Below are positions 857-38,648 of a stretch of DNA of 38,648 bases, in pieces. Positions within the stretch are counted from its first letter, which is position 1. Every line of letters begins with the position of its first letter. A program made the translations under genes and the position numbers. Source of the DNA: a virus. Where the stretch lies: the IMG/VR virus record IMGVR_UViG_3300026311_000005, positions 1-38,648 of that record; one strand, 5' to 3'. A model generated the notes under the pieces. That model was not told the origin of the DNA and did no database searches. It saw only the letters and a list, made by a program, of their open reading frames with translations.

Positions 857-2038
857 TCACGGTCTATATCTGTCGCGCCATTCGATGACATACTCGTCCG
901 TCCCCGCAATGCTCAGTTCCGCCGACTCTCCGGCCGGGACTATCGGGATCTCGGATATGGCGATGTGTCTCCACTGCTCGATTTTCAGGCTCGGTATGGA
1001 GATAGATGTCAGATCGCCGTCGGCGGCAATTCGGATATATGCGTTTTCCATTCCCTCGGCTTGAGGGACATAGATCATCATCTCCCTGCCAGTCGTCCAC
1101 CGCGGGCTCTGCGAATCGATCACGGTCTGCCACGAGGCTTCACCGTCGGTCGAAACGTCGATCGATGCTATGCCCTCCCCTGTCAGAGTGGGCCGGATGG
1201 TCAGCAGCAGACCGCCCTTGCGGATCGGGAAAACTCCGGGGAGATCATATATTGCATATCCGGACGTTGTGATCACAAGTTCCCCGTCGGATACTGATGC
1301 ATTCGATGACGATGACTTGTCGGCCGCGAACTTATCCCCGTCATCGAACATATCCTCATACAGTTGATATAGCTGACCGAATCTGTCCATTGTCAGCTCC
1401 TCATCGGACATGAGCGATGGAGCGACGAGGACGGACGCATCACCGATCGTGATTGTGACATCGGCCCCACCGACGACCGATAGCGAAAACAGGAACGCGT
1501 CCAGCGTCCCGTCATTCTGAATGTACGTAGGCGATGGGAATGGGAATAACATCTCCTCACCATACTCTGCCAGGAGGGCTTGGCCTGCCTCTGACAGCAG
1601 CGGAGCATACCCGAACGTCGGGGCCGCGGCATAGAGCTCCGCAGCCTCGGCCCAGAACTTAGCGGTCTTCCGGACGATCCCCGCCCCCCCGGCCGCTGGC
1701 TCGATCTCGGTATCTCCCACCGAGCCGTGGACGACCGCGAACCGATCAGCCCGGCCGAAATAGAGGCGGTCCGTCTCCTGATCCCCGGCGAGGTCATCGA
1801 TGAGAGCGGTGATCTCGTCCTCATCGCCTATCTGGTCGGCGAGGTCCGGCCGGAATATGAGGCCCGCCACCAGGGTGAGGGGATCGCGGCCCTCCTGCCA
1901 GACGACGGCCCGGTTGCCCCCGATGATGGGTGAGGTCTTCGCCCTGCGGCCCGCGCCTTTGGCCCGCCGGGGCCCCCACTCAACATAGGAGGAGATGTCG
2001 GTATCTCCGATCTGGATTTTTCGCGATATTGAAGTCAT
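857..2038 (-). CDS. Tail-associated protein (393 aa), function unknown
   Basis: ORF track; 4-nt overlap with the upstream tail gene; its stop is followed 9 nt later by the tail fibre ATG, with a GAGG motif spanning the stop. Confidence 0.4.
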   Translation of the reverse strand: MTSISRKIQIGDTDISSYVEWGPRRAKGAGRRAKTSPIIGGNRAVVWQEGRDPLTLVAGLIFRPDLADQIGDEDEITALIDDLAGDQETDRLYFGRADRFAVVHGSVGDTEIEPAAGGAGIVRKTAKFWAEAAELYAAAPTFGYAPLLSEAGQALLAEYGEEMLFPFPSPTYIQNDGTLDAFLFSLSVVGGADVTITIGDASVLVAPSLMSDEELTMDRFGQLYQLYEDMFDDGDKFAADKSSSSNASVSDGELVITTSGYAIYDLPGVFPIRKGGLLLTIRPTLTGEGIASIDVSTDGEASWQTVIDSQSPRWTTGREMMIYVPQAEGMENAYIRIAADGDLTSISIPSLKIEQWRHIAISEIPIVPAGESAELSIAGTDEYVIEWRDRYRP

Positions 2039-4611
2039 GGTTTCGTGATCCCTCTGACTGTGCCAGTTATATCCGAATTTTGCGATATCGCATATCTTCG
2101 AATCATCAACACCGATATCGTTTCGAGATTACCATCCAATCTGCAAAATTGTGATATATCTAAATCGCTAATAATATTCCCATATATTGGCTTCGCTGTA
2201 AGATACGCGCATCGCGCTCCGTTAACGGTGACGATGCAGTCCACCGCCGCATCTGGATTTTCTTGTGAAGTCGTCCCGGACGAAGATAACGAAAACAATA
2301 CCAACCCGGCATCGGTCCCAAAATCATCGGGCGTGAAATTCATCTCAAATTCATATCCTGAAATATATATATGACCACTCGCTGTTCCGATAGTGTTGTG
2401 TCCTGACAACATCAATCCATCTTCCCATGACGTGATGCACGATACCGACGTGGTGATTAATCCGCTGACATCCTCCCAATCTTTCCCCCAATTAGTCGAT
2501 CGGTATAATTCTCCGGCACTAGACGATGCGACCACAAATCCATTGCGGAACGCGTGAAGCTTTTGGATTGTCGTGGATGGGCTGTCATAGACTTCCGTCC
2601 AAGTTGTCCCGTAATCTGTCGATCTAAAAATCTTTCCACCGCGACTAGATCCTGCTAGTATTATACCAGACGTCCACCCTGCCAACGAATATATGAACAA
2701 TTCGGATGAATCGTAGACTTCCGTCCACGTCGCTCCATAATCTGTCGACCTGAAAATCTTTCCACTTGGGTACGTCCCTGCAAATCCGTGCCCCGTGGGG
2801 ATTGCACATGTCCCGAATATATATTGCTCGCTAGTATTATACACTTCGGCCCAAGTTTCTCCGTAATCCGTTGACCGCAAAATACGGCCATTTGCTGATG
2901 TCCCGGCAATTGCGTATCCATTTTCCCATGTAGACATTGCCCATATCTGCGATCCAGATGAATCGTAGACTTCCGTCCACGTCGCTCCATAATCTGTAGA
3001 CCTGAAAATCTTTCCGTTTGGGGAGCTTCCCGCAATTGCGTATCCATTTTCCCATGTAGCTATTGAAGTAATATTATGTTCAGGTGTTACATTTTTAGCT
3101 ACTGCCCAGGTTACCCCTCGATCCGTAGATCGAAAAATCTTCCCGCCCGCGCCTGAGCCACCGTCACCGGTCCCGGCTATTGCAATATCGTCGTTCTGAA
3201 ACACCCCAATTGATGCAATAGTTTTTTCTCCGGTACTATATATGTGTGCGAACATATTTGACTCAGAACTATATGAGGCCTCCCCCACCAACCTGTCACG
3301 ATACGCCTCTATCGCTCCGGTTTCGGATCGTTCCAAAAACGCCGTTAGCAGCGACAGATCTGGCGCTCCGACGACGGCCACCTCCCCTGCGATCGTCTCT
3401 CGAATAGATCGAATCTGAGCCGCGAATTTCTCACCGCCCTCGAGATCCAATTCGATCCAGTCTCCTACATCCATACCGCCTCGATACAGATCGATCTCTA
3501 CCGGCGCGTGTTGATGGATCGCATCGTAAAAGTCATCAGTTGCCTGGTCCAGGTGGCCCCACGGTGGAAGCCTGGCACCGGGGAGCTGGTAGGTAGTCTC
3601 AAGCCACGCCTGACCCGGACACAGCAGCTCGCCACGAGCGTACCGCACGCCCTCTATATTTTCCGCGCCGGCGCCCATCCCGACAACGCAAGAATACGGG
3701 ATATATCGAGGTGGCGAGATCTTCTGTAGACTGAAATCATCGCCGATGTGCAGCGACGCGTGGGGGGCCGACTCCGACCCCCTCGCCTTCGGAGTCGCCG
3801 AAATGTCCAGATAGACGTAATCCTCCTCTCTCCGAAAGACGACGTACTGCCCGGTCTCCCCGACGAGATCCCGGATCAAGCCCCAGATCTCGGTCTCGCC
3901 AACCTCGTACGGCGCTCCGACCTCGGAGTCGGTCGCCACGGTGCCTAGCCGGACGTGATTTTCTGCCCACCCGTCGGCGGCGATCACATCATAGATATCC
4001 CCCGTTCCGGCCCCTCGGACATAGAGGTTATCCCCCGAGATCGCATAGCGATAGGTCCCTCCTGCGATCGAGGATAGGGTGGACTCGGCGAGCTTGTGGC
4101 CGCCGTAATAGATATCGTGACCGGTGACGAGCGGTCCCCATCCCTCCAGAGTTCCCACGCCATCCGAATCCCATGACACGATCCCGGTGTCCTGACCGTC
4201 GCAGATCTTCGACCTGCTGAGCCAGAGGAGGCCCATGCAGTACTGAGTCGCCCCGGCCCCCTGTGGCGGGGCGTCGGAGGAGAAGATGTCGGATAGGGTG
4301 AGCCCGACGCCGCCGGGATAAATGATCTCTGGCGCGTATCGGCACTGGAGAAGGGCTTCGGCGGCGATGCAATCATACCGCCTCTGCCCTCCCACGGCGC
4401 TGTACTCGATAGAGACGACTGAGCCGATGAAGAGCACGTCCCCGGAATCCGAAACGGCCCGGACCCTCGCCCCCATTCGGATATGATCGATCTCCGAAGC
4501 GATGGACAGAGAATCGCCTAGATCGTTCTCCAGGGAGCGGAAGAGTTCCGGGTCGGAACCGTCGATGACGAACTCGGACGACTGTCCAGGATTCTGAAAA
4601 TATAGCATCAT
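2035..4611 (-). CDS. Large tail protein with a predicted Asp-box (BNR) beta-propeller domain, sialidase-like
   Basis: Seven repeats of the Asp-box motif S-x-D-x-G-x-T-W (RSTDYGATWTEV and variants); matching near-identical 60-bp DNA repeats around 2700-3020; N-terminal region paralogous to 4608..6803; start placed at the ATG at 4611 that overlaps the upstream stop (ORF track start 4668). Confidence 0.6.
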   Translation of the reverse strand: MMLYFQNPGQSSEFVIDGSDPELFRSLENDLGDSLSIASEIDHIRMGARVRAVSDSGDVLFIGSVVSIEYSAVGGQRRYDCIAAEALLQCRYAPEIIYPGGVGLTLSDIFSSDAPPQGAGATQYCMGLLWLSRSKICDGQDTGIVSWDSDGVGTLEGWGPLVTGHDIYYGGHKLAESTLSSIAGGTYRYAISGDNLYVRGAGTGDIYDVIAADGWAENHVRLGTVATDSEVGAPYEVGETEIWGLIRDLVGETGQYVVFRREEDYVYLDISATPKARGSESAPHASLHIGDDFSLQKISPPRYIPYSCVVGMGAGAENIEGVRYARGELLCPGQAWLETTYQLPGARLPPWGHLDQATDDFYDAIHQHAPVEIDLYRGGMDVGDWIELDLEGGEKFAAQIRSIRETIAGEVAVVGAPDLSLLTAFLERSETGAIEAYRDRLVGEASYSSESNMFAHIYSTGEKTIASIGVFQNDDIAIAGTGDGGSGAGGKIFRSTDRGVTWAVAKNVTPEHNITSIATWENGYAIAGSSPNGKIFRSTDYGATWTEVYDSSGSQIWAMSTWENGYAIAGTSANGRILRSTDYGETWAEVYNTSEQYIFGTCAIPTGHGFAGTYPSGKIFRSTDYGATWTEVYDSSELFIYSLAGWTSGIILAGSSRGGKIFRSTDYGTTWTEVYDSPSTTIQKLHAFRNGFVVASSSAGELYRSTNWGKDWEDVSGLITTSVSCITSWEDGLMLSGHNTIGTASGHIYISGYEFEMNFTPDDFGTDAGLVLFSLSSSGTTSQENPDAAVDCIVTVNGARCAYLTAKPIYGNIISDLDISQFCRLDGNLETISVLMIRRYAISQNSDITGTVRGITKP

Positions 4612-6803
4612 CGTAACTCCACCTGGAGACGTCTGCATCGTGTCACGCCGTCGCCCCTGCCACTCCAAATCTGGCAGTAGAGGTATATTCCTGCCTGGAG
4701 ATCATCAAGCTCCTGCTGAGTCCATGTTGCGCCGGAATAAGGATTAGTAATCCATTCATCCTCGAAGCGTTGATAGACACCGATAAGAGATCGTTGCGCC
4801 CCCCAATATACCGTACTGTGTGTTTTTATAAACGCTCTCGAATACCCGACATCCATACCACGTTCTAATATAGCATCATGGACAAGAACTACCTTGAAAT
4901 CGAATGATGGCTTAGCTTCGTTGCTGAGGTTCCAAAGGGCCGTGCCGGATGCTTCTGCCCCGCCAATGCGACCAGCGTCCGCCAAGATATAAATATCCCC
5001 TGTCAGCGTTGATGAGATCTTAGATCCGAGCGTTAGTGTCTTTATCGCGCTCTGCCCATATCTCCCGATGCCCCGGACGGTGATCGTGTACCCGAGCGTC
5101 TCCGAAAGGGTCCCCGTGGGGTCGGTGACGGCGATCTCCAGCGTCTCCTCGGTTCCATCGAGCGCGCACCACTCAGTGATGTCCAGCCCCTCGAAGATCG
5201 GATCTTTTCCCCAAGGCTGATGGGGGATGATCGCGATGACCTGGCCTGCTGGATAGGTGGTGTTGGTGATGGTGAGGGTCCACGTGACAGCGAGGTCAGA
5301 CTCGTCCGAGTCTCCGGGTGTCGTAGCCCTGAGATCGACCAGGATCTCGGCAGTGTCCCGGTCACTGGATGCCGTCGGAGTCCAGGATATAGAGCCCGTA
5401 GTCCCCGGACCGATGTTGTCGGTGGCCTCCTGATTCCCGAACGCCTGCCCCGCCCGCATGGCGGCGATTGCAGCCGACGCCTGTTTTTCGAGATACGCAT
5501 TTCTGGGGCTGGCATACTTTCCCCCGAGCCGGATCTGTCGGAGGGGCGACAGATCGCGGGATATCTCCGATATCTGAGCGGTGGCGATCTCCGAAGGCGA
5601 GATCTCTACATCGAGCCAGTCACCGGGCAGGAAGTAGTCGATCGCTGTTTCCAGGGAGATAAAATCCGCCTCGGAGACATCGCCCCATTCTGCATCAGCG
5701 ATATCCTCCAGTCTGCCTTTCGGGGACAGTCTCCCCTCCGAGACGTCTAACGTCTGCTCTATCCAGGGCCCTCTTTTCGAGAGATCCGCCTCTGTGTAAA
5801 TCACCCTAGACACCCCTGCCCCAGCCCCACGACAGATCAAGGCAGTCGGAGGGATATCTCTTGGCGCAGTTCGCTTGAGGCTGATATAATCGCCCGGCCC
5901 GATGGAGAACGCGCCGCCCGACGACGAGCCCCGGACCCACGGATTTATCGACCCGTCTAGGTACGTCAAATCTCCGACGTGCCGAAGTCGAAGATAGATC
6001 CCCATATCGAAAAGAAAATCGTGAATAATCTGCCAATAATTGTCATCGTCGCCGGAGACGTCCAGAGCCGCGAGGAGGTAGTCGCCTGATCTGTCCAGGT
6101 TGCCGAGCCGGAGCCCGGTATCCTTGAAGTTGTCGATGCAAACCGGCCCGAAATCACCGACACCTGCGCCATAGACATAAAGATCGTTATCTCGATAAAT
6201 CCTGTACGTTCCGCCGCTGATATCTCCGAGGGAGTCTACCTCAGTGCAGAGATGGCCGCCTACGTAGACGTCTTTCCCCGCCGTCCGAGGATGTGACCCC
6301 CAGTTGGCCCACTTCCAGACTCCAGCCGTTCGAGAGTCCGCTGTTAGCGGGAAGTAACTATGAGCCATCCAGATTAGGCCTGGCACGTACTGATCCGTTC
6401 CGGCTGATTGGCTGGGAGGATCGGACGACAGGACTTGGGCCAGCGTAAGCGCGGAATAGCCCGAGACGATGGCCGGCGCTCCCCATCGCATCAGGCCCCA
6501 CGGCACCCGGCTCTTCAAAATTTGAGGGATGGATATGCACTTGATTTTCAGGCATCCCTCAGTCTTCCCCGTGGCGGCGTTGTAGAATGTTGCCCCTTCG
6601 CGAGAGGCCGCTGCACCACGATAAATCGTGTGGCCGTTCTCGACCATCTTGAGCCACGACCGATCCCGAACGGGTGCCCGGTACGATACCTTGAACTCCA
6701 GATCCTCCCCCTTGTCGAAGTCTCGGTATTGAGTATGGCGGAGATCCATGATATCGATCTGATGATAGGTCCCAGTAGCGTCGGCGACGTAGACCTCTTG
6801 CAT
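4608..6803 (-). CDS. Large tail protein (731 aa), paralogous in its N-terminal half to 2035..4611
   Basis: ORF track; shared block GGTYR.Y.D..LYV.GAG.GD with the neighbouring gene; immediately downstream of the tape measure gene. Confidence 0.5.
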   Translation of the reverse strand: MQEVYVADATGTYHQIDIMDLRHTQYRDFDKGEDLEFKVSYRAPVRDRSWLKMVENGHTIYRGAAASREGATFYNAATGKTEGCLKIKCISIPQILKSRVPWGLMRWGAPAIVSGYSALTLAQVLSSDPPSQSAGTDQYVPGLIWMAHSYFPLTADSRTAGVWKWANWGSHPRTAGKDVYVGGHLCTEVDSLGDISGGTYRIYRDNDLYVYGAGVGDFGPVCIDNFKDTGLRLGNLDRSGDYLLAALDVSGDDDNYWQIIHDFLFDMGIYLRLRHVGDLTYLDGSINPWVRGSSSGGAFSIGPGDYISLKRTAPRDIPPTALICRGAGAGVSRVIYTEADLSKRGPWIEQTLDVSEGRLSPKGRLEDIADAEWGDVSEADFISLETAIDYFLPGDWLDVEISPSEIATAQISEISRDLSPLRQIRLGGKYASPRNAYLEKQASAAIAAMRAGQAFGNQEATDNIGPGTTGSISWTPTASSDRDTAEILVDLRATTPGDSDESDLAVTWTLTITNTTYPAGQVIAIIPHQPWGKDPIFEGLDITEWCALDGTEETLEIAVTDPTGTLSETLGYTITVRGIGRYGQSAIKTLTLGSKISSTLTGDIYILADAGRIGGAEASGTALWNLSNEAKPSFDFKVVLVHDAILERGMDVGYSRAFIKTHSTVYWGAQRSLIGVYQRFEDEWITNPYSGATWTQQELDDLQAGIYLYCQIWSGRGDGVTRCRRLQVELR

Positions 6804-26826: not shown

Positions 26827-26952
26827 TCACGCGCCCCCGTCCCTCATCGCTTCGGCGAGATCCAGCACCCTTTCAAGACAGTCGCCGATGGTATCGCTTG
26901 CATCTCCGAACTTTGCCAGCCGGGCCTTATCTTTAATCCGGACTCGGATCAT
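26827..26952 (-). CDS. Small protein, paralogue 1 (41 aa)
   Basis: Manual translation MIRVRIKDKARLAKFGDASDTIGDCLERVLDLAEAMRDGGA; last 44 nt identical to the paralogue at 27301. Confidence 0.35.
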   Translation of the reverse strand: MIRVRIKDKARLAKFGDASDTIGDCLERVLDLAEAMRDGGA

Positions 26953-27094
26953 AGTCGTCTCCATGCTAGATAGCAACGCGCGTATTGCTTATAAAGATAA
27001 CGGTATCGCGCCATGTGGCAACGCATGTTCCCTGCTATTGCCAATTGCAAGTTCAGGGCGGGGAGTAGTCACTCAGATTCCTCTGCATCCAAAT

Positions 27095-27298: not shown

Positions 27299-27300
27299 CG

Positions 27301-27444
27301 TCACGCGCCCCCGTCCCTCATCGCTTCGGCGAGATCCAGCACCCGCGCCAAACAGTCGGCCATCGAATCGGAAGCGTTCCCGAAGTTGGCGAGCCGGGCG
27401 TGATCGGCCCTATTCACCCGAATGAGTATTTTATCATCTGACAT
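27301..27444 (-). CDS. Small protein, paralogue 2 (47 aa)
   Basis: Manual translation MSDDKILIRVNRADHARLANFGNASDSMADCLARVLDLAEAMRDGGA; TATA-like TTAATA about 25 nt upstream. Confidence 0.35.
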   Translation of the reverse strand: MSDDKILIRVNRADHARLANFGNASDSMADCLARVLDLAEAMRDGGA

Positions 27445-27535
27445 CAAGGATAGTGAGCCCTCAAAGTATTAATATCTTATCCTTCGGTTTATGTCGTAAA
27501 CTACTTATATAACGAATACAACTAAGGGATATGGC

Positions 27536-27672
27536 GTGTCGCGTCGAGTCGAGTCAGGTCCGGTCGTGGCAGTCGCGTCGAGTCAGGTCGGGTCGGGTCG
27601 GGTCGTGGCAGTCGAGTCGCGTCAGGTCATGTCGAGTCGCGTCGAGTCCAGTCGGGTCCGGTCGTGGCAGTC
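27536..27672. repeat. Pentanucleotide array 1: about 27 tandem NNGTC units in three blocks, each ending in GTGGCAGTC
   Basis: Read directly: GTGTC GCGTC GAGTC GAGTC AGGTC CGGTC GTGGCAGTC ...; 5-bp periodicity, six GAGTC units. Confidence 0.8.
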
Positions 27673-27696
27673 TAACCAAAATGGAGTTGAGAAAAA

Positions 27697-28332
27697 GTGG
27701 CAGCAAAAGCAAAAGCGCCCGCCCAGAGCGGGCCTATAACCCTGAAAAGGATCGAGTTGGAAACGGTTGTCGTCCCGATCGTGGGGACCTCTGAGCTGAT
27801 CGTTCACAAGTGGAGCGATAAAGCCAAGCGCCAGATGCTAGACAAGCAGATGAAACCGGGGACCAGATCAAAGAAGGAAGCAAAAGACCCGGTAGCCGAC
27901 TACGAGGCGTCGAAATATAAGACGCCCGAAGGCAAAGATGCGATGGTGACGACCGCCTTCAAGAAGGCGATGGTTGACGCCCTCCGCTACTTCGACGGTG
28001 TGAGTATGGTCCTGGGAAAGACCGCCTTCTTTGTAGAGGGCGAGTACGTCGAGCTGGAGGGCGAGCCCCGGATGAGAGAAGACATGGTGAGGCTGGACGG
28101 CGGTGGGTCTGCTGACATCCGATACCGGGCCGGGTATCCTGAATGGAAGACGAAGCTCACCATCACCTACGCAAAGGATATCCTCACTATGGAGTCGGTC
28201 CTGTCCCTGGTAGAAGCAGCGGGACAGACCCAGGGCGTTGGCGAATGGAGGCCGTCGTCCAAGAAGACCACCGGTCCCTTCGGTCGGTTCACGATCGACA
28301 CGTCCCGGAAAATTGAGGTGATCACTGCATGA
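27697..28332 (+). CDS. Hypothetical protein (211 aa), first gene of the repeat-flanked plus-strand cassette
   Basis: ORF track; GTG start with GGAG about 11 nt upstream; no recognisable motif. Confidence 0.5.
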   Translation: MAAKAKAPAQSGPITLKRIELETVVVPIVGTSELIVHKWSDKAKRQMLDKQMKPGTRSKKEAKDPVADYEASKYKTPEGKDAMVTTAFKKAMVDALRYFDGVSMVLGKTAFFVEGEYVELEGEPRMREDMVRLDGGGSADIRYRAGYPEWKTKLTITYAKDILTMESVLSLVEAAGQTQGVGEWRPSSKKTTGPFGRFTIDTSRKIEVITA

Positions 28333-28853
28333 CCAAAATGGTATATGCCTGGAGAGAGGGGCGGAGCGCCAGCCCCTACCTTTCCAACGTATCCCCCCAG
28401 GTGGTCGGTGAAGAGCTGGAGAAGGTCCGAGAACAGGGGGGGGGGATGATCTTTCCCCGTGCCGTCATCGATCACGCCCGACCATCCGACTCGCCCCTCC
28501 ATTCATGCTTTGAATGGAACGACACGGAAGCCGCCGAGAAGTTCCGAATCGTCCAGGCGAGGGGGGTCATCAAGTCTGTCGAGATCGTCGAGATCAAAGG
28601 CAAACCACTCCCCTCCCCCATCGTAGCCAACGTCAGCGTGACGCGCCGGGCCGTTGTGCCGGGCGATCCAAGGATCAGGTATTATGAGAGCACTCCTCTC
28701 GCCCTCCAGGACCCGGAGCTTCGGGACCAGGTACTCCAGAAGGCTCTTAGGGAGCTGGAATCCTGGCGGGAACGATACGACGCCTTTACCGAGTTCAGTC
28801 TGGTCTTCGGCTCGATAGAAGCCATCCAGAAAAAGATAAGATCTTCAGCCTGA
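28329..28853 (+). CDS. Hypothetical protein (174 aa), second gene of the cassette
   Basis: ORF track; 4-nt overlap with the upstream gene. Confidence 0.5.
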   Translation: MTKMVYAWREGRSASPYLSNVSPQVVGEELEKVREQGGGMIFPRAVIDHARPSDSPLHSCFEWNDTEAAEKFRIVQARGVIKSVEIVEIKGKPLPSPIVANVSVTRRAVVPGDPRIRYYESTPLALQDPELRDQVLQKALRELESWRERYDAFTEFSLVFGSIEAIQKKIRSSA

Positions 28854-28860
28854 TCTTATC
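28835..28860 (+). other. Hairpin GATAAGATC, 8-nt loop, GATCTTATC overlapping the cassette stop codon
   Basis: Read directly; arms contain TAAGATC, the half-site of the 26130/26315 palindrome. Confidence 0.3.
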
Positions 28861-28868
28861 TTTTCATG

Positions 28869-29025
28869 GCGGTCGGGTCAGGTCGTGTCGGGTCCGGTCG
28901 AGTCGAGTCGTGTCAAGGCAGTCGGGTCCGGTCGGGTCGAGTCATGTCTCGTCACGTCGAGTCAAGTCAAGGCAGTCGCGTCGTGTCGTGTCATGTCACG
29001 TCGTGTCGCGTCTGGTCGTGGCAGC
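28869..29025. repeat. Pentanucleotide array 2: about 26 tandem NNGTC units in three blocks punctuated by AAGGCAGTC, AAGGCAGTC and GTGGCAGCC
   Basis: Read directly; same unit type and orientation as array 1. Confidence 0.8.
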
Positions 29026-29060
29026 CGTGGCGTGTCTTGCTGCCACTATTCTATTTTTAT
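29017..29060 (+). terminator. Putative intrinsic terminator of the plus-strand cassette
   Basis: Stem GTGGCAGC, 13-nt loop, GCTGCCAC, followed by TATTCTATTTTTAT. Confidence 0.45.
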
Positions 29061-29170
29061 GATTCAAAAAAGAACGTGCTCTGAATTGTGATCTCACATT
29101 TCGCGCCACATTTATCGCGCCATGACTCAAAAGAATGAGTCACCGCGCATTCGGAAAAGCACGCGTGCAT

Positions 29171-30529
29171 TCATGGCGCGAAGTCCTCCAGCGTCGCCGG
29201 GGGCCTCTCCGCCGCCGCCAGTCTAGCCTCGGCGATCTCGACGTACTCAGGCTCAAGCTCGATCCCGATATATCCGAATCCCTCCTCTTTCGCGGCGACG
29301 AGGGTCGTACCCGATCCGGCGAATGGGTCCAGGACCGTCCCGCCTGGGGGGGTGACGAGCCGGACTAGGTAGCGCATCAGCTTGAGGGGCTTGACCGTGG
29401 GGTGGTGGTTTTGGCGATGGGTTTTGCCTCGGAGATATGGGTTGTCAATCGGGGTGTTTCGTCCATCGTCTGTGATCCGATCTGGCATCCCCTCCAGCCC
29501 CCGGTTCCGTTCGGCCCGGCTCGCCTTCGCTACATATACGATCGGGTCCGGGTCTATCTGGAGGAAGAAGCGGGCGGCGGTGCCTTCTCTATCATGCCAT
29601 GTATGTTGCCCCCCCTTCAACCCGAACATACCACCCGGATCAGCTGATACTTTACCGCGGCCTTCTACAGAACCGCCGCTCTTCAGATGCCCCGATTGCT
29701 CCGCTATGAGCCGTACCGCACATCCTTCGACGCAGTCCTCCCCTCGCCGAACGCACCCCGGCGCGTGGCCGAGGATGAGGTTCGCAGGCCAGCGGCCAGA
29801 AGGGTTCTGGACGAACTCCGACCGATTCGTGTCTTTATATCCGCTTGGATATGTTCTGTTTTTTTGAACATGCCGGCCAGACGAAAGGATATCTCCCGTC
29901 CCGATCCGGCACCCGTCCACATTCACCGCGCCGCAACCCCACCGGAGGACGTTCGCCGCAACCGTCTTCTCTGATAACGGTTTGCGAGCCATCACGATCG
30001 GTTCATGGGCGGGCTTAAGAGCGGTCCCCCACCCGTCCCATTGGCGGGCGGCATCGGTGGCGGGGGCGGTGATGTCGACAGTTTTGCGGCTACCATCCGC
30101 TGGCAATGCGGGACCGTTTGCATATTGACTACCTCTGCCACCTGTTGCATTATTCCCCCAAACTTCTGATTGCCCTATCACGTCCCGCTCGGCCCCAGCC
30201 GCCCGGTCGATCGCCTTCGACACGTCCAGACTTTTCGGGAATCCTGATCCATATACCCAAGAGATACAGTCCCTGATCTCGAGTCCCGCGTCCTCGATCG
30301 CGCAAGCCAGCCGATGATAGGTCCGAGTCCCTCCGAACGCCAGCAGATAGCCGCCGGGCTTCAGGACGCGCCACGCCTGCCTCCAGACCTCCTGATCGTA
30401 GGCTATCCCTGACCCATCCCATTTCTTTCCCATGAACCCCAGCTCATAAGGCGGATCACAGACGATCGCGTCGATAGAGTTCTCCTCCATTTCGGCCATC
30501 CGTTCACGGCAATCTCCCTGTAATATCAT
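29171..30529 (-). CDS. DNA methyltransferase, beta-class amino-methyltransferase (N6-adenine or N4-cytosine), orphan
   Basis: Motif IV IVCDPPYE near the N-terminus and motif I VLDPFAGSGTT near the C-terminus; Cys-rich middle region; no adjacent restriction endonuclease. Confidence 0.85.
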   Translation of the reverse strand: MILQGDCRERMAEMEENSIDAIVCDPPYELGFMGKKWDGSGIAYDQEVWRQAWRVLKPGGYLLAFGGTRTYHRLACAIEDAGLEIRDCISWVYGSGFPKSLDVSKAIDRAAGAERDVIGQSEVWGNNATGGRGSQYANGPALPADGSRKTVDITAPATDAARQWDGWGTALKPAHEPIVMARKPLSEKTVAANVLRWGCGAVNVDGCRIGTGDILSSGRHVQKNRTYPSGYKDTNRSEFVQNPSGRWPANLILGHAPGCVRRGEDCVEGCAVRLIAEQSGHLKSGGSVEGRGKVSADPGGMFGLKGGQHTWHDREGTAARFFLQIDPDPIVYVAKASRAERNRGLEGMPDRITDDGRNTPIDNPYLRGKTHRQNHHPTVKPLKLMRYLVRLVTPPGGTVLDPFAGSGTTLVAAKEEGFGYIGIELEPEYVEIAEARLAAAERPPATLEDFAP

Positions 30530-32259
30530 CCGAAGCCCTCCAGCGTCGCCGGGGCCTCGAAGCTAAACAGGCTTTCCTGTTCATGATTCTTAAGCCCGGT
30601 GTCCACATCGCCGTATATCGATTTGATATTTTTGGGATCACCCTTATAAAATACCAGAACGTTCTGGTGAGTCTTCCCAAGCTTCCGGTATCCCTGAAAC
30701 TGCTTATTCACCCGGATAGGGAGCGACCCCACCGACGTGATCAGGACGGCCTCATTATAAAGGGTCGCCCCGGCGTCCTGGAAGGCTTCGATGGTATCCC
30801 CCACGAAGTTACGATAGAAGCCCCGCCGATCCCGGATATCCCCCACGACAAAGCAGGCGAATCGATCCGGCTTCAGCATCCCCACCGACGCCGCGACGAT
30901 GCCCCGATAGGTCTTGAGGAAGCCCTCATAATCCATGGTGGATAAGTCGCGGGGGTCGTCTGAGTATCTTTCGAGGTCGAAATATGGAGGACATGAAAAG
31001 ATGAGATCGTACCGACCGGGGGCGATGGCGGCGATGTCCTGGCTATCCCCGGCGATCCATCTGGGGTGGGTTCCGCCGTGTTTAATCGTGTCATTGTATC
31101 GAAGCTTCCGCCAGCTGTCCTTTGGCATGTATGAAACGAGGTCCCCGCCGCCTGCGTCGAAATGATCGCATATCCGCCCCGCCTCCTCGTCCCCGAAAAT
31201 ACGATCGAGAGACGCTCGGAAAGCCCGATACGCTGGAATCCTTTCTCCCTGGTTGTAGCATTTCAAGAGCTTATATCGGTTACGTACTATCAAGGTGTTA
31301 TTATCATTTAGCGTAAATGGGGACGCGATGCACCCGAAGGGCTTGTCTGTGGTAAAATGGAGTCCACACAGATCCTCGTCCGTCTTAAATGGGCATCGCC
31401 CGGAAGTTTCAAGCAGGCCGCCTTTTATAGACCCGCCCCGGCCCCGGATCGTCTCCTCCTCGTCTGGGTGGATGGTTATGATGGTCCCGCTAGGCGAGGT
31501 AGATGATTGACAGCAGCTCGCGTGACAAACTGATCGGATATAATCCGGATCGCATCCATGAAACGGTGTCCTGGCCATCGCGGCCGATACCTTGATCTGG
31601 ATCTTTCCATTATCAGACGGAGGACATTTCAACCCTATAAAATCCCATTGATCCTTATTCGCGGCTATCTGCTCCGGTCGGAGATCGACGCCGGTGTACT
31701 GGAAGCCCGTCAACGCCGCCACGATGCCCCGGACGGACCCGCCCGCGAAGGGGTCGAGGACATGGCCGCCGGGGGGCGTGAACCATCGATATATCAACTC
31801 ACAGAGGACGGGATCAAATATCGACGTGCCGCTCTGTGGCTGAGCCGCAAGAATCTTGCGGCTCACTTCGTCTAATTCGTCATCGGGCCGATTGCCCGTC
31901 ACCCAAGTCAATCGATCGCCTATCGGCCTCCCCGCGCCGTCTCCTCTCTCCCGGTGGGAGTAATCGCACGCGGGACGAGGACTCCCACCGGGAGACGCGT
32001 TCTTATAGTGGCTTCTGGCTTGCTCGGAGAAGCCGAGCAAGCCATTTTTATATTTTTTCGAGCCGTCGAATCCTATCTCCCCGTTTTGGCGGCTTATCGT
32101 GGCGGCGTCGGAATAGACATGCACACCGACGCCGCCACGTCCTATCTCGCTCTTGATCCCCTTCGCCAACCAGAACCTCTTCCTCTCCTGCCAATAGCCC
32201 TGCCGGGCGTCGAGGACGGAGAACGGCGGCATCACGAATTTATCGGATAACGTTCCCAC
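30526..32259 (-). CDS. DNA methyltransferase with a long Cys-rich insertion between motif I and motif IV, orphan
   Basis: N-terminal MPPFSVLDARQGYWQERKRFW, motif I VLDPFAGGS, motif IV-like FSCPPYFD; about 270 aa between them with many Cys; likely true start is the ATG at 32232. Confidence 0.75.
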   Translation of the reverse strand: MGTLSDKFVMPPFSVLDARQGYWQERKRFWLAKGIKSEIGRGGVGVHVYSDAATISRQNGEIGFDGSKKYKNGLLGFSEQARSHYKNASPGGSPRPACDYSHRERGDGAGRPIGDRLTWVTGNRPDDELDEVSRKILAAQPQSGTSIFDPVLCELIYRWFTPPGGHVLDPFAGGSVRGIVAALTGFQYTGVDLRPEQIAANKDQWDFIGLKCPPSDNGKIQIKVSAAMARTPFHGCDPDYIRSVCHASCCQSSTSPSGTIITIHPDEEETIRGRGGSIKGGLLETSGRCPFKTDEDLCGLHFTTDKPFGCIASPFTLNDNNTLIVRNRYKLLKCYNQGERIPAYRAFRASLDRIFGDEEAGRICDHFDAGGGDLVSYMPKDSWRKLRYNDTIKHGGTHPRWIAGDSQDIAAIAPGRYDLIFSCPPYFDLERYSDDPRDLSTMDYEGFLKTYRGIVAASVGMLKPDRFACFVVGDIRDRRGFYRNFVGDTIEAFQDAGATLYNEAVLITSVGSLPIRVNKQFQGYRKLGKTHQNVLVFYKGDPKNIKSIYGDVDTGLKNHEQESLFSFEAPATLEGFG

Positions 32260-37721: not shown

Positions 37722-38648
37722 CTACATCACCCTCGTCGGTACCCTGACCTCGAACGACTCCACGAGGAAGTCGCTAGTGAGATTATTCGAGCTGGGCGCT
37801 ATCCTCGATATCGCCAGCCTCACCCTTTGACCGGCAGACCAACCAAGGGAGCTGACGGTCGCCGTCCAGGTGTAGATGACGGGCCGGTTCTGGGTGGCGT
37901 TGCAGGCTAGGTCGCCTGAGTCGCTGGCGGTCGAGTAAGCAGTATCGACAGACCCTGCGCCGCTCGACAGGACCAACTGCTTCACCCTGAACTTAACGTT
38001 CTTGCCGGCGGCCGCCGTCTTGGCCCACCCCACGAGGGCGAACGTTATGGTTCCCCCAGTGTTGATGTCGGCCGGCACCACGAAGGCCGGCGCCTGGGCC
38101 GTCTCCTCGGTAGTGTCATCGAATGCAAGCGTAACCACCGCCTGGTTCGTCCCATCCAATAGGTATTCCTCGGGCGAGTTGGCGGCGTCAAGGTTGAATG
38201 CGGTGGGCGGCAGCACGAGGATCCTCGTGCTGTAGAGATACGTCCAGGCCGGATCGTCTGCACCCATCGACAGAACGGAGTACTGGGAGCCTTTGGCGAG
38301 CCTGGCGGCGTCACCGGATCCCCGGTATAGCAGGTCTCCCCGGGTCGTGAGGATCTGGTTCAGAAGGGTCGCCAGGGTGGCCCAGGCCGGATCGTCTGCA
38401 CCCATCGACAGAACGGAGTACTGGGAGCCTTTGGCGAGCCTGGCAGAAGTTCCGTCCGAGCGGTATAAGAGATCTCCCCTTGTGGTCAGGATCGTATCTA
38501 GTATCGCCGCCGGAGTCGAAACCCCTCCGAACAGAGGCCGGTCGTCCCGGTAAATGTAGCTGTTGGAGCCGTCGTCGGCGTCATCGATATGAACCGATCC
38601 CACCCGATGATAGACCAGGCAGATCGGGACGGTATTCGCGACGAGAGC
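37722..38648 (-). CDS. Tail fibre protein, C-terminal portion (38522-38648 duplicates 1-127); contains a tandem 46-aa repeat
   Basis: ORF track 37722..38603 with no stop upstream to the window end; internal repeat ILTTRGDLLYR...ARLAKGSQYSVLSMGADDPAW occurs twice; last large gene of the tail cluster. Confidence 0.6.
   Translation of the reverse strand, partial: ALVANTVPICLVYHRVGSVHIDDADDGSNSYIYRDDRPLFGGVSTPAAILDTILTTRGDLLYRSDGTSARLAKGSQYSVLSMGADDPAWATLATLLNQILTTRGDLLYRGSGDAARLAKGSQYSVLSMGADDPAWTYLYSTRILVLPPTAFNLDAANSPEEYLLDGTNQAVVTLAFDDTTEETAQAPAFVVPADINTGGTITFALVGWAKTAAAGKNVKFRVKQLVLSSGAGSVDTAYSTASDSGDLACNATQNRPVIYTWTATVSSLGWSAGQRVRLAISRIAPSSNNLTSDFLVESFEVRVPTRVM
38522..38648. repeat. Terminal direct repeat, copy 2 (identical to 1-127)
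   Basis: Same comparison as above. Confidence 0.9.

Follow-up and report, generated by a model that had tools for sequence, protein, structure and literature searches.

The closest described relatives of the locus analyzed here are the systems named VIPR, for Viral Interference Programmable Repeat, which were described in two 2026 preprints (10.64898/2026.04.26.720920,.720927). The locus is located in the virus record IMGVR_UViG_3300026311_000005 of IMG/VR, whose complete stretch of 38,648 nucleotides (nt) is referred to as the window, and consists of two overlapping plus-strand genes flanked by arrays of pentanucleotide repeats. As described in the preprints, Vipr is a small phage-encoded RAMP, which polymerizes on a vrRNA composed of YNNGG repeats, 9-16 in number; each repeat is occupied by one protomer, whereby the protein buries GGY and displays the dinucleotide NN. 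The NN pairs read double-stranded DNA with one base skipped per repeat, usually the codon wobble position, and transcription is repressed as a result of the binding. In nature, VIPR is directed against satellites, prophages and other VIPR loci, and self-targeting was reported to be absent (10.64898/2026.04.26.720920,.720927).

A typical VIPR locus contains vipr and a vap gene between long 'intergenic' regions encoding the vrRNAs, and the minimal vipr and vap operon is mostly found in viruses or proviruses. The accessory gene vap1 boosts protection. Seven VIPR types are given in the available preprint text, some of them with 'staggered arrays', where consecutive vrRNAs overlap by 1 nt, each one beginning where the preceding one ends, and the same text allows the 'related' repeat consensuses NNNGG, YNNNG and NNNNG. 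Vipr was reported to branch outside of Cas5/6/7, and VIPR, with its non-contiguous RNA-guided DNA recognition, was proposed to predate CRISPR (10.64898/2026.04.26.720920,.720927). In the cryo-EM structure from SUSP1, the repeat RNA is held by the residues H17, R138, D177, W178, and R179 (10.64898/2026.04.26.720927).

The locus of the window is very probably a VIPR system of the staggered-array kind, containing a Vipr, a Vap and six guide-RNA blocks; this function is assigned by homology and anatomy. The two genes are:

27697-28332, plus strand: vipr, 211 amino acids (aa), GTG start
28329-28853, plus strand: vap, 174 aa, ATG start

The ATG of vap (28329-28331) and the TGA of vipr (28330-28332) overlap within ATGA, which results in a 4-nt overlap of the open reading frames (ORFs). 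A two-gene plus-strand cassette at this place had been reported in a preliminary description, made from the sequence without database searches, and could be confirmed; minus-strand genes lie on both sides of it. Its statement that the proteins carry no recognizable motif was fair for an analysis without tools, as Pfam, NCBIfam, and PADLOC gave no match to either protein and PHROGs gave two families of unknown function only. The system can no longer be called uncharacterized, since it is described in the 2026 preprints (10.64898/2026.04.26.720920,.720927), and the cassette limits of 27697-28853 have to be extended to a unit of about 27531-29060, the flanking repeats very probably being the guide-RNA arrays.

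Identification of Vipr and Vap

The 211-aa protein is a Vipr, i.e., a minimal Cas7-like RAMP. About 2,300 homologues were found for it at E ≤ 1e-3, which establishes the ORF as a real gene. In the PDB, a single chain was matched significantly by phmmer, namely 36pp_D, the 'SUSP1 Vipr protein' (E = 2.9e-4), with an alignment covering the segment YR...GVG[D/E]WRP...FGRF. The comparison of a 42-homologue profile with the Vipr of Felixounavirus Alf5 by hhalign resulted in a probability of 97.2% (E = 3.6e-11); the Alf5 protein is 100% identical to the aligned 55-aa SUSP1 segment. The AF2 model of the 211-aa protein has a pLDDT of 88.6, and with Foldseek it is matched best by backbone subunits of the CRISPR types III and VII (Csm3, Cas7) as well as by Cas7-11 (E of about 1e-6, probability 1.0). 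Two structural elements of the protein could be located:

Residues ~139-159 of Vipr: thumb hairpin, holding R144
Residues ~176-196 of Vipr: glycine-rich loop with GVGEWRP

In the family alignment H37, R144, G180, G182, and R185 are invariant and E183 and W184 nearly invariant, the position of E183 being occupied by D in close relatives. The counterparts of SUSP1 H17, R138, D177, W178, and R179 are H37, R144, E183, W184, and R185, all of them thus invariant or nearly so; the correspondence of H17 and H37 was taken from the multiple alignment only.

The 174-aa protein fits the published definition of vap and would be the Vipr-accessory protein (Vap) acting as a partner of Vipr. Its profile detected 13,650 cluster representatives at E ≤ 1e-3, so that this ORF is a real gene as well and belongs to a very large family without annotation. 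A member of the family is located directly downstream of vipr and in the same orientation in 81 of 90 collected loci, and the 33 GenBank phage records with a homologue of Vap are precisely those with a homologue of Vipr. The 174-aa protein has the conserved motif SPLHxxFEW(N/D)DxxAA...RxxQAR and a long C-terminal helix. The profile search of the PDB resulted only in a weak coiled-coil match to a single-stranded DNA-binding protein (E = 0.42) and no recognizable fold, and Pfam scans of 65 family members gave nothing consistent. An assignment as vap1 of the SUSP1-type locus was rejected, as neither BLASTP nor hhalign revealed a match.

Repeat arrays and putative guide blocks

The vipr-vap pair is bracketed by repeats, as stated in the preliminary description. 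According to an exact count, GTC recurs every 5 nt without deviation in six runs, each with 6-11 units and all together with 52; three of the runs are located upstream (27538-27567 with 6 units, 27572-27606 with 7 and 27611-27665 with 11) and three downstream (28872-28916 with 9 units, 28921-28970 with 10 and 28975-29019 with 9). No further GTC runs were found anywhere in the 38.6-kb window and none in the GAC orientation. The repeats are not explained by chance, as 100 shuffles gave a mean of 0.26 and a maximum of 2 runs of at least four units. Tandem Repeats Finder reported period-5 arrays at 27538-27658 and 28864-29036.

Each GTC run is closed by GGCA, followed by the G that opens the next run. 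Because the G following the 4-nt GGCA unit starts the next block, with an overlap of 1 nt, the arrays fit the staggered kind as worded in the available preprint text. Both arrays open with ATGGCG(T). For comparison, six metagenome contigs (L095-L100) with vipr-vap DNA 98.7-99.8% identical to that of the window were used as sister contigs; they are from digester samples (ERZ27257450/51, JGI 3300025737, 3300025713, 3300010365). The predicted elements are:

27448-27537, plus strand: AT-rich leader, putative promoter region, ending with ATGGCGT (GGC+GT unit) before the first GTC
27538-27572, plus strand: vrRNA block U1, 6 x GUCNN (GC GA GA AG CG GT) and GGCAG, the last G being common with U2
27572-27611, plus strand: vrRNA block U2, 7 x GUCNN (GC GA AG GG GG GG GT) and GGCAG
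27611-27670, plus strand: vrRNA block U3, 11 x GUCNN (GA GC AG AT GA GC GA CA GG CG GT) and GGCAG
27684-27692, plus strand: Shine-Dalgarno-like GGAGTTGAG, 9 nt before the GTG of vipr, leader identical in five sister contigs
28866-28871, plus strand: boundary unit ATGGCG, the GGC unit opening the downstream array, ATGGCA in the sister contigs
28872-28921, plus strand: vrRNA block D1, 9 x GUCNN (GG AG GT GG CG GA GA GT AA) and GGCAG
28921-28975, plus strand: vrRNA block D2, 10 x GUCNN (GG CG GG GA AT TC AC GA AA AA) and GGCAG
28975-29024, plus strand: vrRNA block D3, 9 x GUCNN (GC GT GT AT AC GT GC TG GT) and GGCAG
29018-29060, plus strand: terminator-like hairpin GUGGCAGC...GCUGCCAC followed by UAUUCUAUUUUUAUG, found by terminator scan, its 5' arm being the last block boundary

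The blocks U1-U3 and D1-D3 have lengths of 35, 40, 60, 50, 55, and 50 nt, which corresponds to 7, 8, 12, 10, 11, and 10 units including the terminal GGCAG. The final NN of a block, directly in front of GGCAG, is restricted (GT or AA in the window, AA in L005, AT in the Mycobacterium phage Donkeykong); it is probably a part of the boundary signal and not of the guide.

The leader is nearly identical in the sister contigs L095-L097 despite their differing arrays. The sequence TTATATAA (27505-27512), which precedes the first repeat of the array by about 26 nt, was considered as an archaeal TATA box; this assignment was dropped, as the sister contigs carry TTATGCTAA instead. The ribosome-binding region is identical in the sister contigs wherever the flanks are present. 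The terminator named in the preliminary description as the other bracket of the cassette is present as a hairpin with a T-run; its 3' arm and T-run are identical in the sister contigs, and an analogous hairpin was found in L003. A search of positions 27300-29200 against Rfam gave nothing meaningful and no hammerhead.

The start of vipr lies in GTGGCAGC (27697-27704), the octamer of which the block boundary is formed and which is found again as 5' arm of the terminator hairpin. It is kept at the vipr start in all sister contigs and could be a coincidence or an autoregulatory or processing site.

Exchange of putative guide blocks in sister contigs

The arrays of the sister contigs differ by whole blocks, and 27 distinct blocks were counted in the seven contigs including the window. 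The better-covered sister contigs have 4-7 blocks upstream and 5-6 blocks downstream. Only two of the six window blocks recur in them, namely D2 (L095-L099) and U3 (L099), while a variant of D3 differing in one NN is present in L096. This is evidence at the population level for discrete and exchangeable guides.

Comparison with described and newly assigned loci

With the Type II VIPR of Escherichia phage SUSP1/Felixounavirus and the P. fulva prophage, the window locus has the order of array, vipr, vap and array on one strand in common, as well as a Vipr RAMP of about 200 aa with the conserved thumb Arg and the G-loop [D/E]WR. Pentanucleotide repeats with three fixed and two variable positions, the location in a virus and the lack of a target in the own genome are further common features. 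In contrast to the SUSP1-type locus, the similarity of the window Vipr is limited to about the last 60 residues, the Vap is unrelated to vap1, and the blocks abut via the 4-nt GGCA, whereas SUSP1-type loci encode separate RNAs of about 100 nt with a pseudoknotted tail. The fixed trinucleotide is GUC in the window and GGU in the Felixounavirus locus.

The locus also resembles canonical staggered GGC/NN loci, which were found, for example, in Mycobacterium cluster F phages (Cheoctovirus), the Gordonia phages ODay and Pipp, and Cyanophage Cy-LDV1. Their Vipr proteins are 44-48% and their Vap proteins, which belong to the same family, 32-36% identical to those of the window, and they have the same arrangement of …NN GGCA G…, the TGGCAG boundary and the 1-nt block overlap. 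Internal repeats are GGC in these loci, but GUC in the window. The Mycobacterium, Gordonia and cyanophage loci were assigned to VIPR in this analysis as putative members; mycobacteriophages are not mentioned in the available preprint text. In most of the 90 related loci, period-5 arrays are located beside vipr and always on the vipr strand; they are mostly GGC arrays, and the TGGCAG boundary is common.

In the Mycobacterium phage Donkeykong, 63 GGCNN units with blocks joined by TGGCAG are located directly upstream of the vipr homologue. Gene 48 of this phage (L001, 4480-4866), annotated as 'hypothetical protein', overlaps this (GGCNN)n array; the same holds for the corresponding gene of other cluster F phages (L033, L035, L037, L038, L046), with arrays of 36-63 units. 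Gene 48 and its cluster F counterparts are most likely vrRNA arrays mis-annotated as coding sequences. Genes 49 and 50 of Donkeykong are the vipr and vap genes, which are not annotated as such.

The loci L007-L009, whose Vipr is 55% identical to that of the window, contain vipr-vap without clean period-5 arrays (5080-5450), and their downstream intergenic region has only degenerate G-rich segments resembling GGGTT or GGTAG. They may have a more degenerate repeat consensus or decayed arrays.

The backbones of class 1 CRISPR-Cas systems (Csm3, Cmr4, Cas7 of types III and VII, Cas7-11) resemble Vipr in the RRM/thumb/G-loop fold, in binding one protomer per fixed RNA period and in base flipping at regular intervals. 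The window locus differs from these systems in that a CRISPR array and partner Cas proteins are lacking, one repeat period comprises 5 nt instead of 6 nt and the guide is non-contiguous.

According to the preliminary description, the cassette was a candidate for an accessory system such as anti-defence, exclusion or a recombination module. This is correct insofar as the pair forms a mobile conflict cassette, and 'exclusion' is the closest of the three options because VIPR systems silence competing viruses (10.64898/2026.04.26.720920); anti-defence and a recombination module are unsupported. No homology to a single-stranded DNA-binding or annealing protein was found; a housekeeping function of this type with conserved synteny had been named in the preliminary description as the finding that would speak against an accessory role. 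The pair occupies differing genome positions in different phages. In Gordonia phage ODay it is inserted between the tail chaperone and tape-measure genes, and at the corresponding position of the virus Caudoviricetes sp. vir515 there are two small genes unrelated to vipr-vap. Due to these different insertion positions, vipr-vap is regarded as a mobile accessory module.

The GUC repeat variant

Since GGC is always located on the vipr strand in the related loci, and its complement GCC would not be GGY, the plus-strand GUC of the window corresponds to GGC position for position. GUC was found throughout a monophyletic clade of Vipr proteins 66-84% identical to that of the window (L003-L006, L011-L013). 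A second, distant GUY clade (35-41% identity) contains L077/L102 with 69 GTT and 12 GTC units and L106 with 58 GTC and 10 GTT units. The block boundaries keep the canonical GGC in all GUC/GUY loci, and the closing unit may accordingly have a role of its own in processing or in the capping of the filament.

The residues cradling G2 in SUSP1, R138 and W178, are unchanged in the GUC proteins. Ser188 (RPSS) is the only position that every GUY protein has in common and that none of 25 GGC-type proteins shows, these having Ala, Lys or Arg instead; this association is a correlation and not a mechanism. E33 and G146 were rejected as specificity residues, as they separate the window clade from the GGC-type proteins but are missing in the second GUY clade.

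With regard to the available preprint text, the GUC repeat is possibly an undescribed variant. A natural switch of the Vipr handle from GGY to GUY in two separate clades, namely the window clade including a contig of a Methanothrix metagenome-assembled genome (MAG) and the clade of L077/L106, is conceivable and is proposed here tentatively.

Target search and putative host

Exact patterns with 1-nt skips were derived from U3 (22 and 20 specified bases), D1, D2, D3, and the longest sister guide. Applied to the window itself, the 1-nt-skip rule gave better matches than control spacings for none of the guides, which agrees with the published lack of self-targeting. Likewise, no enrichment of skip-1 matches was detected in 574 kb of collected loci or in the related Methanosarcinales virus vir515. 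Two candidate targets were rejected. For D3, one match was obtained in IMG/VR (L091), located in an AT-rich provirus; in the only long ORF present, it is the second codon position that is skipped, and about 1-2 matches are expected by chance. U3 matches three soil contigs (two distinct sequences) in frame within a 602-aa ORF, with the 11th NN unmatched and about 2 matches expected by chance, the latter being a rough estimate from an assumed collection size. N4 is G in 61% of 179 dinucleotides, and the NN composition fits best to sense codon positions 1-2 (+0.26 bit per NN), which weakly supports coding targets with wobble skips.

The Methanothrix sp. MAG contig JAABPZ010000073.1 (L194) contains, in the region 1600-2219, a truncated vipr, which is 68% identical to that of the window over the first 73 residues. 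A period-5 array of GTC/GTT in degenerate form, with GGCAGTC at the boundaries, is located in front of it. Methanogenic archaea are hinted at by this contig as hosts of the GUC clade. The second-best terminase match of the window is from a Methanosarcinales virus (33% identity), to which a 53-bp piece of the window is 98% identical as well. In conflict with these hints, the closest named relative was binned in a Dehalococcoidia MAG. The host is therefore only possibly a Methanothrix-like archaeon, the evidence being conflicting.

Proposed mechanism and alternative explanations

The following mechanism is extrapolated in all its steps from the published work on SUSP1 and P. fulva. One rightward transcript would start in the AT-rich leader (about 27450-27530), run through the first array, vipr, vap and the second array and end at the hairpin at 29018-29060. 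Cleavage of the transcript at the GGCAG boundaries would yield six vrRNAs of 35-60 nt. One Vipr protomer would bind each repeat, with the fixed trinucleotide buried and the NN displayed, and the resulting filament would recognize double-stranded DNA in the pattern NNxNNx..., where the one base left out is mostly that of the codon wobble position. A gapped R-loop or triplex would be formed and would block the transcription of the bound gene, while Vap would enhance the repression by Vipr. Likely targets would be genes of viruses or proviruses that compete for the host.

Several observations weigh against the assignment as a VIPR system. All 52 internal units of the window are GUC, with GGC in the boundary units only, so that the internal trinucleotide is not the GGY of the described systems, and the available preprint text names neither a GUC or GUY repeat nor a Vipr shown to bind GUC. 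The blocks U1 and U2, with 7-8 units including the boundary, are shorter than the reported 9-16 repeats, and the invariant 3' part of the blocks comprises only (GU/AA)GGCAG without a structured 3' tail between the blocks. A sigma-70 scan revealed no promoter upstream of the array, and the terminator hairpin, with a fold of -14 kcal/mol and z = -1.15, is not unusually stable. The Vap is unrelated to vap1, the only vap tested. Furthermore, exact scans of IMG/VR, JGI metagenomes, and GTDB gave nothing or matches at chance level without supporting context; as matches of at least 80% of NN were accepted in the published work, this negative result is weak.

This lack of a competitor target in the exact-pattern scans would also agree with a VIPR-type ribonucleoprotein whose guides regulate the own life cycle or host genes, e.g., as a lysis-lysogeny or takeover switch. 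The position of the cassette beside regulator-like paralogous 48/49-aa ORFs and that of the cluster F mycobacteriophage copy in the immunity/early region point in the same direction. However, no guide matches the own genome above control skip rules, the published natural targets are satellites and prophages, and the rapid turnover of blocks at up to 99.8% identity is as expected of an arms race, so that a regulatory role is considered unlikely. A further explanation would be a minute or degenerate remnant of a class 1 CRISPR-Cas system, for which the best structural matches of the 211-aa protein, all of them Cas7-family subunits, could be cited. No CRISPR repeat-spacer array was found among the tandem or direct repeats, Rfam and PADLOC gave no match, the examined genome region of 38.5 kb contains no other cas gene, and the protein has sequence homology to Vipr, which was reported to branch outside Cas5/6/7. 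Such a remnant is accordingly regarded as highly improbable.

The arrays could in principle also be DNA-level elements to which the two proteins bind, e.g., iterons, partition sites or an origin, instead of templates for guides; dense direct repeats flanking two small proteins that resemble nucleic-acid-binding proteins and the richness of the arrays in GAGTC and TCGA sites beside two DNA methyltransferase genes would fit to this. Such a role is very unlikely in view of the strand asymmetry of the repeats, which are always on the vipr strand in about 70 loci, of three fixed and two hypervariable positions out of five, of the swapping of whole blocks between near-identical genomes, of the terminator after the array and of the homology to an RNA-binding RAMP with a solved repeat-RNA complex. 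Finally, the arrays are covered by two ORFs, one of 87 aa at 27531-27794 and one of 72 aa at 28866-29084, and such ORFs are annotated in databases for mycobacteriophages, so that the arrays might code for Ser/Arg/Val-rich proteins like gene 48 of Donkeykong. The 5-nt period with 4-nt boundary units cannot keep a reading frame, the block lengths (5n+4 and the common G) and the gains and losses in the sister contigs are mostly not multiples of three and the conserved positions follow a 5-nt and not a 3-nt pattern. As the block lengths break the reading frame, these array-spanning ORFs, including gene 48, were excluded, and a coding function can practically be neglected.

Genome context of the locus

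The window represents a complete virus genome of 38,521 bp, since bases 1-127 recur exactly at 38522-38648; this direct terminal repeat of 127 nt reflects either a circular assembly or terminal redundancy. The genome is that of a tailed virus, with nearly all genes on the minus strand; its products include a large terminase, two DNA methyltransferases and a tail protein resembling Mtd. Besides vipr-vap, plus-strand ORFs are present at about 33.5-36.8 kb. The cassette is placed between regulator-like 48/49-aa paralogues and the two methyltransferase genes, its neighbours being:

27301-27447, minus strand: 48-aa ORF, left of the cassette
29171-30529, minus strand: N6/N4 DNA methyltransferase gene, right of the cassette and just past the VIPR terminator
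30526-32259, minus strand: second N6/N4 DNA methyltransferase gene, adjacent to the gene at 29171-30529

GAGTC (GANTC) and TCGA sites are abundant in the arrays, and given the two adjacent methyltransferase genes, the array DNA may be heavily methylated.

The paralogous ORFs of 49 and 48 aa (26827-26976 and 27301-27447, minus strand) form a 108-nt repeat with 81% identity and have the motif …IRV..D.ARLA.FG.ASD...DCL.RVLDLAEAMRDGGA in common. A 53-bp piece of this repeat region is 98% identical to vir515, for which the annotated host is Methanosarcinales.

The minus-strand ORF 17405-18484 matches the Pfam entry 'Mtd second domain' (4.7e-13). Mtd is a type of receptor-binding protein that is diversified by diversity-generating retroelements. 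A scan of the window for direct repeats of at least 50 nt revealed no pair of template and variable repeats; no search was aimed at a template repeat or a reverse transcriptase. The minus-strand ORF 2035-4668 contains a repeat of 126 nt (42 aa), which is present in four copies with 61-84% identity at 2565-3041, and the G + C content of this segment falls to 46%, compared to about 58% elsewhere. The ORF probably encodes a repeat-domain tail or fibre protein and was possibly acquired horizontally. Furthermore, a 138-nt tandem duplication (1.8 copies, 63-nt core 100% identical) is located at 38244-38493 within the minus-strand ORF 37722-38603.

Implications for VIPR biology

The locus illustrates an annotation gap, as Pfam, NCBIfam, PADLOC, and PHROGs name neither protein, phage records even annotate guide arrays as protein genes, while such cassettes can be noticed just by reading the sequence. 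The published model for the gripping of G2 by Vipr is put to the test by the GUC repeat, which could also give an orthogonal handle for multiplexed tools. If the proposed handle switch is true, GUY and GGY systems could be orthogonal in nature as well as in use as tools, and the near-identical sister genomes with their shuffled blocks would provide a direct view of guide gain and loss without Cas1. With 27 blocks in seven near-identical cassettes, a natural data set is available on guide turnover, which was left open in the published work. Should the host be Methanothrix, the locus would represent an active-looking VIPR system in an archaeal virus from anaerobic digesters.

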